A stretch of 64,000 nt of DNA from Eledone cirrhosa. Taxonomy: Eukaryota. The notes beneath the pieces were generated by a model. The model was not told the origin of the DNA. It ran no database searches and saw only the letters and a program-made list of their open reading frames with translations. The translations under genes were made by a program, and so were the position numbers. Shown piece by piece: positions 3,094 to 18,561 of this stretch; the stretch's first letter is position 1, and each line of letters starts with the position of its first letter. The DNA is taken from assembly GCA_964016885.1 (NCBI GenBank), contig OZ024741.1:205654001-205718000 (forward strand), read 5' to 3'.

Positions 3094-3459
3094 TCTATCT
3101 CCTTATAATATATAACCAGCAATTTCTCTGTCTGTCTGTCCGACGCGTAGAGAGAGAGAATGAGAGTGAAAGAAAGAGACAGACTACAAGAGGGGGATAG
3201 CGGGAGGGAGAGAGAGAGACACTGGAAGAGGGGAAGGAAAGCTATGTGTTGCTGTCTGCATTACGATACATATATATATACACATACACACTGAGCGCGT
3301 CATAATGACGTAATGCAGACAGCCAGACAGACAGACAGATATTATAAGGGCGCAACGTTATATCTATGTATCTATCTAAAAAGAAAGACTAAGAATTATA
3401 TAGAGAGAACGCTAAATCGCCTAATGCGGTCCCTAGGGCATTGAAAATTTGAAATAATT

Positions 3460-3668
3460 TTTGCTCAAAACACTCACAGGACCATAAGTATTACATGTGT
3501 AAAGTTTGAAAACAATCGGTTGGGTGGTTCTCGCTGCTAGTCTATATATCTAAAACAGAGAATGTCTGTCTGTCTGTCTGACTCCCTAAAACTCGAGAAC
3601 CACCCAACCGATTGTTTTCAAACTTTACACATGTAATACTTATGGTCCTGTGAGTGTTTTGAGCAAAA
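3460..3668. repeat. About 75-bp inverted repeat of non-autonomous Helitron sequence around a CTAG|TC junction
   Basis: 3460-3533 is the reverse complement of 3594-3668; the spacer contains CTGCTAG-TCTATATATC and (GTCT)n. Confidence 0.85.
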
Positions 3669-3793
3669 AATATTTTATCACCATATTTCTAATGAAAGAC
3701 ATTGCTTATAATTTTCAAATCATTCTGAAAATAATAAAAAATATGAAGAGATTTCATAATATAAATTTCAGATTATTCAGTTAGTATTTAGGG

Positions 3794-3987
3794 CAGAGGT
3801 TCTCAAACGTTTTGGGCCACCGTCCCCCTTACAGCCACGCAATACCCTCAGTGCCCCAACCCTATTTCCAGAGAGGCCTGCCTACACACAAATTGTAAAT
3901 AATATATAATAAATAAAATTGTTAATTTATATATAATAAATAATAAATTCATAGCATTGGCGGTAATGCTCACTTTGAGAACCTCTG
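3794..3987. mobile_element. hAT (Charlie-like) MITE, 194 bp
   Basis: 14-bp TIR CAGAGGTTCTCAAA / TTTGAGAACCTCTG; 8-bp TSD ATTTAGGG / ATTTAGAG (one mismatch). Confidence 0.85.
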
Positions 3988-4382
3988 ATTTAGAGCATAA
4001 CTTAACAAAGGTGCTTACATAAAATTATTAGGGAAGGATTTTAGATGAAAGGAAATGCTTTACAACAAACAGTTTTATGTTGTAGAAGGGGTGGTTTGAT
4101 ATCAAGAAGGTAATCATTCTTGTTAATCCATCCTACAAAGATATCCTGATCATAGTGAATGGGCTTATTCACGGATGACTGAAATTCAGGTTTGATTGCT
4201 TGCTTGAAAAACTATCTGAGAAGAAATATGATCTTACAGTTAACAATGGACAATAACTAGTCAATTGCAGTTGCAACCAAGAAGAGTACACAAGCATAAA
4301 AGTCTAAAGCAGATGTAAAAATAATAAAAATCATAGATAATGAACAAGATTGGTAAAAGTATTTAACACTTTAATACAATTT

Positions 4383-16000: not shown

Positions 16001-16596
16001 TTTTTTAACGACATATCCAATTGGTGCCTTTCCATTTTAGAGGCGTATGCTGAATTAGTTGCTCAACTGTATAGGAGATTAATAAAATTTCAGGTTATCA
16101 ATAATGTAGTGATAATATATCGTTACGTTAGAGATGAACAGCGTACGTGCAGGTTTGCTCAACGAGTATAAATTATATTCCGGAGAAAATGTAGAAAGGA
16201 TGAATATAAAATGAAAGTGCTTTTTGTTAAAAAAGGAATTTATTAGGTATTGACATATGTTTCTGTAACAGACCGAATACCTATGTATCGCTGCTTGCGT
16301 AATCATATAATGTTAGCAAGTATTCGATAGCAAATGTATAATCAGTTGTCACTTCTTCAGAGATTTTGGATAAATTGGATAAAATCAGAAAAATTGAAGT
16401 ATTTATATTAGTAAAAGAGGAAGGAACAGAGGGGATAGTATATGACAGATGGTAAATTAATTTACATGACAGATGGTAAATTAATTTACTGCTAAACAAG
16501 TATATAATGGGTTTCTAATGAGAATACCATGAGTAAATCTAAATAAGAATTTTGGGAGTGCCAATTTTAATCTCTACTTGACCAACTGGACAGTGG
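13069..16596 (-). mobile_element. Penelope-like element with intact ORF and direct pseudo-LTRs (13069-13449 and 16192-16596), inserted at (TA)n
   Basis: ~380-bp near-identical direct repeats (the second has a 24-bp internal tandem duplication) flank an RT/GIY-YIG ORF. Confidence 0.93.
13711..16035 (-). CDS. PLE reverse transcriptase - GIY-YIG endonuclease polyprotein, 774 aa (probably Nematis/Neptune-type)
   Basis: SLKNIP, ADKTSN, LKDHK, QFDIDEYYSSI, TMGS, IYRDDAL, VNFLDV, SNHP, CNC...CPLNNQCL..NIVY...YYVGST..FKSR, CKLC..E; no stops. Confidence 0.93.
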   Translation of the reverse strand: MERHQLDMSLKNIPIQAKREYILGMIRRTNDFIRRIRWKTFHFDKSRINQTSDLNKDKFGFKSYKNPPSNPLLDAFEQDLMDMIMEIKFTKRKNNKLQNDITALLNNLKNANGIIVRADKTSNVYTMDVDTYNNFIRKELHKKYRKTNEATLKNINNSACDIVKKLCIDDRTQPLTPAIPSFNLKDHKVNFDTNPNIRLICPSKSDIGKISKYILDRIIPQVKVKVEIKLWGNTHEAIRWFNNITDKKKSKFIQFDIDEYYSSISPDTLHEALSFAKDNSDLTDAEIKIIMEARKTIVKFDDSYWVRKDRPSNFDITMGSNDSAEVTDLVGIYITHRLQGKFKDLHGGIYRDDALLLVKHMNNQNLERMRKNIRKLFKELGLNITFEYNLKEVNFLDVTFNLNTDTIKPFHKLNENLKYVNTSSNHPLSIIKSIPRNVSLRISRLSSNQQTFKEHAEYYDDALRKAGHLDNIEYIVKDHQNTQNKSHRSRNSTESPPYIHYRNRHNNSRTPPNRRRCKEYIWYNPVYNNSIKTNLPSKFFRLVKKHFPTSHKYNKILNPNTIRLSYSTAPNIEQHIKKLNAKRLYKRLPTHNNTRKTLAITSQNNKQHPVLHKQPHQPIHGNTTTQNYNCNCVQPGMCPLNNQCLERNIVYKCTIESDRQKWYYVGSTATSFKSRLYRHRYSIKHENQRYVTTLADKAWQLRENNQQFHLKWDIIAAAPPPPPPHGQEFCKLCNVELFCIMKSKNILLNNRIERSLYCNHRLKSTFSYYKYYQD

Positions 16597-16654
16597 TCGC
16601 CCTGTTGTGTGTGTATATATATATATATATATATATATATATATATATATACAC

Positions 16655-17823
16655 ACACAACAGGGCGACCCTTTGGGACCCCTCCTGTTCGCCCTTGATA
16701 TTGACCACATCGCCCGGCGTATCACGACCGCTCTCAACGTTTATCTGGATGATGCTACGTTAGGCGGGCCCGTACGGACTGTCTGCCATGAGCTTCAATG
16801 GGTGGTTCCTGCCCTGGCGAGAATCGGCCTCCAGGTCAACTCGGCCAAGTTGGAGGTGGTGAATGTCAGCCTCGATGCTGAGAGCTTTGCAGCCTCCGTC
16901 TTGGACGTGCGGTCCTTTCTTCACCAGGTTCAGGTGACCCCCAAAGAGGATGTCCTCATCCTCGGGTCACTGATTCGCCTGCCGGCCACCCGCTCCACCA
17001 TCAGGTCCAGGCTTCAACAACTCCAGACTCTCACGAGCCGACTGGGCTTGATTGACCGCCACCCAGCTCTCTTGCTGCTGAGGAACTGCTTCGCCATGCC
17101 GAAGCTCCTCTATACACTCCGCAGCACTCCGTGCTCCACCCAGACATCTCTCCTCACTGACCTCGATACTTGTATCCGAACAGCAGCAGCCGAGGGGATA
17201 TGCAACGCTAAGTTTGACGACATAGGGTGGCAACAGGCCACTTTACCTGTCAGGTATGGCGGCCTTGGCCTCTGGTCCCCGATCTCACTATCTTTGCCGG
17301 CGTATCTTTGGTCGGTAACCTCGTGCCGCGTCCTCGTCAGCAGGGTTCTTCAAAACACAACAGAACCCTCTGTGTTCAGAGGACGTGAGGCCGCCTATGA
17401 GACGTGGGACCGGCTCGGACTTAGCCTAGTAGACATCCCTCCTCCTTAACCCCTTCTTGACGTCAAGTCCCCCCAACACACCTGGGATGCCATCCAGTGC
17501 AGCCTGGCCTCAGACAGGCTCACGCGCCAGCTCGACCAGCACCGCCTTACTTCTGGTGTCCTCGACCCCAGGGCTACCTCTTTACTCACCACCATAGGCG
17601 ATGAGCTGGCCAGCCGTAGGTGTGAGCCCCGCGAGTTGGAGTGGCTTTTCCAGCGCGTCTCCCTTGCCGTCCTCCGGGGAAATGCCTTCTCCATTCTGTG
17701 CGCCGGGGCTGTGGGTGGGCCCCATTGCGTATCATTTTTGTAAATATGACAACATATTTTATTGTTGATGTTATTGTTTTCGTTATACGCTATTTCTCTA
17801 TATAAAAAAAAAGAAAAAAAAAA
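16655..17823 (+). mobile_element. 5'-truncated, internally deleted CRE-like (RLE-type) non-LTR retrotransposon with poly(A) tail
   Basis: QQGDPLGPLLFAL, YLDD, IGLQVN..K, LLLLRNCF..PKLLY.LR, QATLPVRYGGLGL; C-terminal WLFQRVSLAVLRGNA near 17640-17690; A-rich tail at 17804-17823. Confidence 0.85.
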
Positions 17824-18561
17824 GTTAGAGAAACAACAAGAATATTAATAATAACACAGATACATTGTAGGTCGCTTTAACCCGTATTTTATTATTCAAA
17901 AAAATTCTTGCCAATAAACATTAACCCTTTGTGCACCATTCATCTAACTGTAGACCAACAAATACCAAGTAAACATTGACAAGTAAACGTTGACAAGAAC
18001 GATGGCGATTGAATCTTCGAGGTAAGTAGTTTCCTCCCGAGCTGTTAGTTCACGCGGGATTCTCTGCTACAGCTTTTCGTAATAATACCGAACAACGTAC
18101 TGCTGGTCACTCCTTCCTCCAAAAGCCGTACAAAGCGGACATATGCACCGGGTAGATGGATCGGGTGCAAATCTACACCAGACCTACGCGAGAAATTCGC
18201 AAGGGACTGCACCGAGAGGGATAGAGAGAAAGAGTAACTTAGTGGAAAGAGTGCGAATGAACTTTTGAGGTAAGTAGCCTACGCCTTACTGCTATGACAC
18301 TGGAACCTTCTGCCAACTTAACTTGTGACTTTCTCTTTCACATTTACTCCAAAAGGCCAAAACAGAGGAACATGAAAAGAAGGGGCTCAACAATATTTCT
18401 ATGAACAATGCACGTAGACAGCTAAACTTTACTTTCAACTAAACAAGTTTCCTGTCGGTATATTTTCGTGAGTTTTTAACAGGCAGTCACAAATAAACGT
18501 TTCTCATTGGAGGTGCTATTACTAATGCTCTTACCCGTGCAACGCCGGGATACACTGCTAG

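Follow-up and report, generated by a model that had tools for sequence, protein, structure and literature searches.

Canonical non-autonomous Helitrons (Helitron1/HLE1, with ends of the Helibat/Helraiser type; PMC4778049) carry a 5′ TC and a 3′ hairpin followed by CTAG, and they insert between A and T (A^T) without target duplication. Two further behaviors are described. In read-through or end-bypass capture, an orphan 5′ end moves together with downstream host DNA up to a new CTAG (PMC4778049, PMC3288121), which in Helraiser arises when the hairpin is missing (PMC4778049). Head-to-tail or multi-terminus Helitrons have a CTAG that runs straight into the TC belonging to a different Helitron. 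One heterologous head-to-tail pair is described in maize, and one of the models named for it has insertion occurring in the A^T at the 5′ end of the older element (PMC2267711), and maize Helitrons more generally "insert near other ones" in loose clusters (PMC3288121). Self-insertion is described in Fusarium (PMC5148889), nesting, multi-terminus elements and loose clustering in PMC3288121 and PMC5148889, tandem arrays in a Hydractinia study (PMC11934779), and precise CTAG-TC joining by the transposase in PMC4778049 and PMC5876387. Here, we analyze a 64,000-nucleotide stretch of the 3.0-Gb Eledone cirrhosa assembly (C2:205654001-205718000, hereafter the window), in which a 15.5-kb block bounded by Helitron ends (positions 3094-18561) interrupts the pol gene of an old Gypsy element. 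We show that this block is very probably a ~1.5-kb non-autonomous Helitron in an A^T site of the Gypsy element, likely grown to 15.5 kb in place. Nested at its start are a 2.1-kb unit that quite probably represents a read-through capture and a young Helitron, family A, whose type of 3′ end is mostly followed directly by TC throughout the genome, in samples the start of an older Helitron.

The left junction of the block (3093/3094) reads AAAATCA/TCTATC and the right junction (18561/18562) reads CCCGTGCAACGCCGGGATACACTGCTAG/TAATTT, where the hairpin predicted at the block's end folds. Both junctions are as claimed by an earlier model-made annotation of the same DNA (the sequence-only reading), which had also proposed an A^T insertion without duplication and a Gypsy RNase H frame running through the joined site. 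Comparison with 18 other Gypsy loci bears this out: the empty A^T site is contiguous, with no duplication, in 11 of them, while two carry a deletion across it, four match on one side only and one matches on neither. A stop-free frame crosses the insertion site in 8/9 natural Gypsy copies tested, and Pfam RT_RNaseH was recovered in the three copies scanned (E 1e-27 to 2e-26), with the site at the C-terminal edge of the domain. Since the empty A^T site is present and the RT_RNaseH frame is open through it, 3094-18561 is therefore a precise insertion in Gypsy. The host lies on the minus strand and comprises a left flank of pol (2913-3093; median divergence of 10.2% from 13 other copies) and a right flank with remains of reverse transcriptase (RT) and gag, including deletions (18562-19690; from a domain scan and other copies). 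The order RT-RNase H-integrase, in which the RT is a putative domain, a gag zinc knuckle and long terminal repeats (LTRs) place it in Ty3/Gypsy; the LTR-like pair is at 1273-1353 and 20177-20263.

The two outermost sequences of the block are not the two ends of one family. Alignment of 3094-3300 and 17900-18561 to the family consensus had been proposed as a check of that point; the two are unrelated, and it is 5635-5915 that holds the actual 5′ partner of the right end. The query 3094-3362 returned 2335 candidates, the best at 96-98%, and these copies begin with TCTCC, which corresponds to window position 3098. Copies of this family (family A) end in their own palindromic hairpin and CTAG ~530 bp downstream, so that the TC at 3094 and the family A start at 3098 are two distinct 5′ ends. 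The right end, module C (17854-18561, plus strand), comprises a 3′ body, hairpin and CTAG and returned 1214 candidates at 88-92%. None of 29 C copies has the family A 5′ end upstream; 11 of them have module D (5635-5915 in the window, plus strand), the 5′ body, upstream on the same strand within 1.5 kb. Reciprocally, C lies within 1.5 kb downstream in 8/29 D copies, six of which reach its CTAG, and whole D-C elements measure 1166-1738 bp. For 20 of the remaining 21 D copies we took the 20 kb behind D (L117, with C nearby on the opposite strand, was omitted): C starts 2.3-10.2 kb downstream on the same strand in 13 of these 20 and on the opposite strand in none. Overall, C follows D on the same strand in 21 of 29 D copies, L131 and L132 being duplicates, which makes D and C a single family whose members are commonly inflated through the microsatellite. 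Another such D-C element, spread over >12 kb, is present at C3:341.50-341.52 Mb (L120) and is near to the case in the window.

D copies typically begin A/TCTAT-ATATATAAAAC; in the window, TCTA stands at 3094-3097 and ATATATAAAAC at 5635. No TCTA precedes family A in 29 other A copies. Judging from these letters, TCTA at 3094-3097 (plus strand) likely represents the opening four bases of the outer D-C Helitron, severed from D by a later insertion. The microsatellite of intact D-C copies can be followed through the window by three landmarks that occur in the expected order: m1 at ~6056 (found by eye, with one mismatch, so that an exact pattern misses it), m2 at 12447 and m3 at 13018. These define a first (5916-6076), a middle (12324-12556) and a last part (12982-13070) of the microsatellite, all on the plus strand. 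TCTA, D, the microsatellite pieces and C are thus collinear and sum to 1476 bp, and D and C are of equal age, with median divergences of 5.0% and 5.2% from the 29 nearest copies of each. The reassembled element has a 5′ TC after host A, a 3′ hairpin with CTRR before host T, an A^T target without duplication and both ends from one family, as in canonical Helitrons; unlike these, it includes a long compound microsatellite in which insertions accumulate. Module C also appears outside the block, in a second pile of elements within the same Gypsy (2096-2912, 181 bp upstream of the block), which takes the place of ~520 bp of Gypsy present in other copies and terminates in a module C 3′ end (2816-2912) that is 97% identical to 18465-18561.

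Directly behind TCTA lies the window's copy of family A (3098-3540, plus strand), a young Helitron, non-autonomous, that terminates in a CTAG of its own (median divergence of 2.0% from 29 copies). This copy is short of ~80 bp, among them most of the hairpin, yet still ends in CTGCTAG at 3540. Its last ~35-80 bp are copied from the adjacent 2.1-kb unit, and 3452-3533 and 3594-3675 form a 99% inverted repeat. At three sites the tail carries the letters of its neighbor, which none of 28 family copies do, and this points to local fold-back repair as the likely origin of the tail.

What follows the family A end is highly regular. In all 27 intact ends among 29 A copies, the next two bases are TC, and genome-wide 577 of 650 exact matches to the A-type palindromic end (89%) are likewise followed directly by TC. 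In a sample of 30 such matches, TC came next in 28, and most belonged to a sister family with a different body. Behind A-type ends lie Helitron-type starts from a variety of families (10 and 9 clusters, the starts among the singletons being putative). As controls, TC followed only 1/29 module C ends and 1/14 intact ends of an older relative with a near-identical hairpin (21 loci, of which 13 intact ends were recognized by pattern and one by eye), the A-type ends differing from the two controls with Fisher P = 5e-24 and 2e-11, respectively. Upstream elements are ~2% diverged and the elements behind them ~11%, an order seen in 59/61 and 75/76 pairs, although these pairs are not independent and include loci that duplicate one another locally or were sampled twice, which tempers the case; subfamilies account for some of the difference. 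In the two downstream elements tested, the nearest copies were 7.7% and 5.9% away, leaving no recent donor in either case, and an A-type end preceded 0/20 of these nearest copies. In the window itself, family A sits before a unit whose putative donor copy on C3 lacks A. In the samples, the TC behind an A-type end opens an older Helitron, and this suggests that resident 5′ ends are targeted.

We therefore lean towards a reading in which a recent wave of Helitrons lands nearly exclusively on the exact A^TC start of older ones from many families; the wave comprises family A together with its sister, which share one palindromic 3′ end and number at least 650 copies. Family A and its sister would then be, with similar moderate confidence, site-specific parasites of the initiation sites of other Helitrons, with target choice tied to start-site nicking. 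Family A would be added singly at resident A^TC starts, and in the window it would have inserted at the A^TC start of the unit after the unit had arrived. The predicted cause is that the transposase takes as its target a resident 5′ end that it already recognizes and nicks. Base-pairing of family A's inverted arm with the target 5′ end, considered as a cause of targeting, is not needed, because the sister family shows the same bias and has no such arm. At two places (L229/L230 at C1:41.976 Mb and L233/L234 at C1:57.970 Mb), chains of two palindromic-end Helitrons occur with a spacing of ~950 bp, and a TC start comes after each Helitron, which amounts to repeated stacking at one site. Described head-to-tail Helitrons are a single case or a loose tendency, unlike the 577/650 ends, two families and many older partner families found here. 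Family-wide targeting of resident Helitron 5′ ends was not found in the literature searched, which covers little of the subscription literature and does not establish absence from print.

An alternative is that A and its sister join in trans to the displaced 5′ end of another Helitron and co-insert, or spread as fixed composites. The transposase is able to form precise CTAG-TC junctions (PMC4778049, PMC5876387), family A in the window is about as old as the unit that follows it (2.0% and 1.8%), and this unit was the source from which A's tail was copied. Nevertheless, the downstream elements belong to many families and show roughly fivefold the divergence of those upstream, and for both downstream elements tested the nearest copy is 6-8% away, leaving no recent donor. 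We regard this alternative as rather unlikely.

The unit behind family A (3541-5634, plus strand) ends in CTAG and consists of an orphan Helitron 5′ end of ~135 bp (3541-~3676) followed by ~1.95 kb of host DNA, which includes a MITE (miniature inverted-repeat transposable element; 3794-3987) flanked by an 8-bp duplication. No gene fragment was seen in this cargo with the open reading frame (ORF) listing and an Rfam scan. The query 3700-5520 found exactly one other full-length match in the assembly, a paralog at C3:41393028-41395145 with 37 mismatches in 2090 columns (1.8%), the differences being scattered along the unit. The two copies share exactly the stretch from TC to CTAG (3541-5634), with unrelated flanks of the form A/TC...CTAG/T on both sides, and nothing of the rest of the block was collinear within 70 kb of the C3 paralog. 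In another species (run X1), a single 1634-bp contig is ~91% alike over 4115-5525, the interior of the unit, and the DNA of the unit therefore appears to be old and single-copy. Among the listed sites at which the two copies differ, this contig sides with C3 at seven (4127, 4190, 4274, 4285, 5252, 5254 and 5319) and with the window at three (4200, 4262 and 5119). Additionally, a 14-mer repeat straddles the CTAG junction on C3, which only 5/576 control windows share (P about 0.01).

A Helitron 5′ end, host DNA, a CTAG end and a paralog with different flanks together match the pattern of Helitron 3′ transduction, and with good confidence we take C3 to be the donor and the unit to be a Helitron read-through product; the donor status of C3 is itself inferred, as the likely case. 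A Helitron on C3 would have lost its 3′ end, after which the transposase would have nicked the orphan TC, run through ~1.95 kb of host DNA and come to a halt at a CTAG that lacks a good hairpin; the captured strand would then have been pasted four bases into the D-C element. As in published end-bypass capture, an orphan 5′ end would have moved with downstream host DNA to a new CTAG; unlike there, this would be a natural event whose likely donor is still present at 1.8%. The sequence-only reading had named a donor locus for 3700-5630 as a sign of capture, and the C3 paralog answers to it, as a 2.1-kb capture nested in the block.

Several observations speak against this account. Only a weak hairpin (-1.4 kcal/mol) precedes the CTAG that ends the unit, although the unit holds four CTAGs before it that were bypassed, one of them behind a stronger hairpin (-6.0 kcal/mol). 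The C3 copy has canonical A/TC and CTAG/T borders at both ends and could itself be an insertion, and no other-species contig across either C3 junction was seen among those listed. Furthermore, runs X17 and X18 (same label, one sample) show the C3 letter at 10/10 of the sites listed, as would be expected if the window copy were absent or collapsed, absence being something that short-read contigs cannot show. The canonical C3 flanks and the weak hairpin, together with the one-base slip at 5635, would also suit an alternative in which the unit reached both C2 and C3 as a Helitron insertion from a lost or unassembled donor, or arose by a repair-type duplication. Against it, the assembly holds two copies only and another species one homologous contig, so that one copy should be native; the window copy sits inside two other transposons, the shared ends fall exactly at TC and CTAG, and the repeat straddles the C3 3′ junction. 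A lost donor or duplication is improbable on this balance, and read-through from C3 remains our preferred explanation.

The remainder of the block consists of elements inserted in or next to the microsatellite of the outer Helitron. On the minus strand, 6077-7325 (right boundary approximate) holds a complete family E Helitron (6077-6864, A/TC...CTAG/T) behind a D-like 5′ part (6865-~7325), the two being likely one composite insertion. It is followed by a plus-strand repeat fragment ending in (TA)n (7355-8055), similar by eye to sequence after the D microsatellite in L124; the fragment looks like the 3′ end of a Penelope-like element. Penelope-like element 1 (8137-10842, plus strand) has a broken reading frame and a weak GIY-YIG match; it is multi-copy at 93-96%, its matches stop at its own ends, and its median divergence is 3.7% (5 copies). 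A 547-bp repeat (10865-12323, unstranded) forms about two tandem units plus an inverted part in self-comparison, and a 79% relative of it adjoins module C in L047. A short repeat inserted in (TA)n (12557-12981, unstranded) has, by eye, the same start after a TA run as in L112. Finally, a 5′-truncated LINE fragment with an A-rich tail (16597-17823, plus strand) gave an RVT_1 match of E 1e-5, below the cut-off, and its truncated 5′ end is a perfect fold-back around (TA)n (16597-16670).

Penelope-like element 2 (13071-16596, minus strand) is a young element, with an open 774-aa frame (16035-13711), pseudo-LTRs, at least 24 other near-full copies at 97-99% and a median divergence of 1.5% (9 copies). 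Matches to it never pass its own ends, and its upstream pseudo-LTR is clipped at 16596, where the LINE fragment begins. Because it belongs to a young multi-copy family with no match beyond its own ends, Penelope 2 is a young independent insertion and not cargo. Motifs and full-length homologs identify a single ORF with RT plus GIY-YIG at its C terminus; 58 homologs of the protein were found, one of which carries PF00078, whereas a Pfam scan of the protein itself gave no direct match, a PDB sequence search gave nothing useful and no hammerhead matched in Rfam at the gathering score. A G run (13863-13882) encodes a poly-proline stretch absent in a homolog; the frame is open across it, and the run is assembly-sensitive. 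The Hydra clade of Penelope-like elements is defined by the motifs RWK, DKT, CxCX5C, CxxC and CxH and a (TA)n target (PMC8557442). All of these are present in Penelope 2, as are the single ORF, C-terminal GIY-YIG and pseudo-LTRs of that clade; it differs in being 3.5 kb long, compared with <3 kb in the clade, and was placed there by motifs.

Each large inner piece is thus a separate multi-copy family, younger than D and C. The contents listed by the sequence-only reading, namely two Penelope-like elements, a LINE fragment (with its weak RT match, and putatively of the CRE clade as labelled there), a MITE, further Helitrons and single-copy-like DNA, are all present, and of its two proposals that of a small Helitron turned insertion sink agrees with the D-C family, the collinear pieces and the younger inner elements. 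Younger elements would have inserted one by one into the TA/CA microsatellite and TA-rich start of the outer Helitron. From the divergences we infer the order Gypsy (~10%), D-C (~5%), Penelope 1 (~3.7%), followed at ~1.5-2% by the 2.1-kb unit together with family A and Penelope 2, which fits nesting. The same internal order had been expected elsewhere in the case of capture, and no second copy across any inner junction was seen among the best 26-40 candidates scored per search. Matches listed for 7047-13070 (40 candidates scored) and 13071-17853 (26 scored, with 412 further matches beyond those listed) were all confined to single elements.

Some points detract from the sink. Divergences are medians to the nearest copies, which biases the ages young, and several inner pieces lie in microsatellite, where the insertion signature is unreadable, three of them unclassified. 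The 5634/5635 junction is one T short of a perfect TCTA^T split, and no listed short-read contig spans the block junctions, though this gap proves nothing. The other proposal, that one composite Helitron gathered all 15.5 kb of the mosaic at another locus, together with the intact Penelope, and carried them into Gypsy, could draw on the clean A/TC...CTAG/T outer junctions and on the established read-through to a downstream 3′ end (PMC4778049). We consider it very improbable: the outer ends match a common 1.2-1.7-kb family often inflated in place, Penelope 2 is independent, and a move after the arrival of Penelope 2 (~1.5%) should have left a near-identical donor, yet none appeared among the candidates scored. 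A mis-assembly is likewise very improbable, for although the region is microsatellite-rich, lies beside a ~42-kb satellite and lacks the window's alleles of the unit at the sites listed for runs X17 and X18, its element junctions are base-precise, the window contains no N, the age order is coherent and the 37 differences are spread along the window's unit copy.

Beyond the Gypsy element, the window contains a 40-bp tandem array of 13 copies (1-521) and, from ~21950 to 64000, the ~42-kb satellite array, built of a 36-bp GGT-rich unit with a 9-bp subunit. The stop-free frames of 8000-10000 codons in this satellite are probably non-coding. An Rfam scan of 1-22000 gave no match.

Insertion sinks and transduction are known biology. 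The block documents nesting, and structure-based callers would take such sinks for giant cargo Helitrons. The 2.1-kb unit is likely a natural case of read-through capture that carries a date and whose likely donor is still present, matching the demonstration in cell culture. Helitron target choice is known only as "AT". Active wheat Helitrons show an AT preference only (PMC13286980), and an octopus repeat annotation treats Helitrons only in totals and timing (PMC13282606). If our reading is true, a family that lands at the 5′ ends of other Helitrons in 89% of cases would make target selection directly testable, and such targeting would describe a safe-haven strategy that did not turn up in the literature searched and would explain multi-terminus Helitrons.

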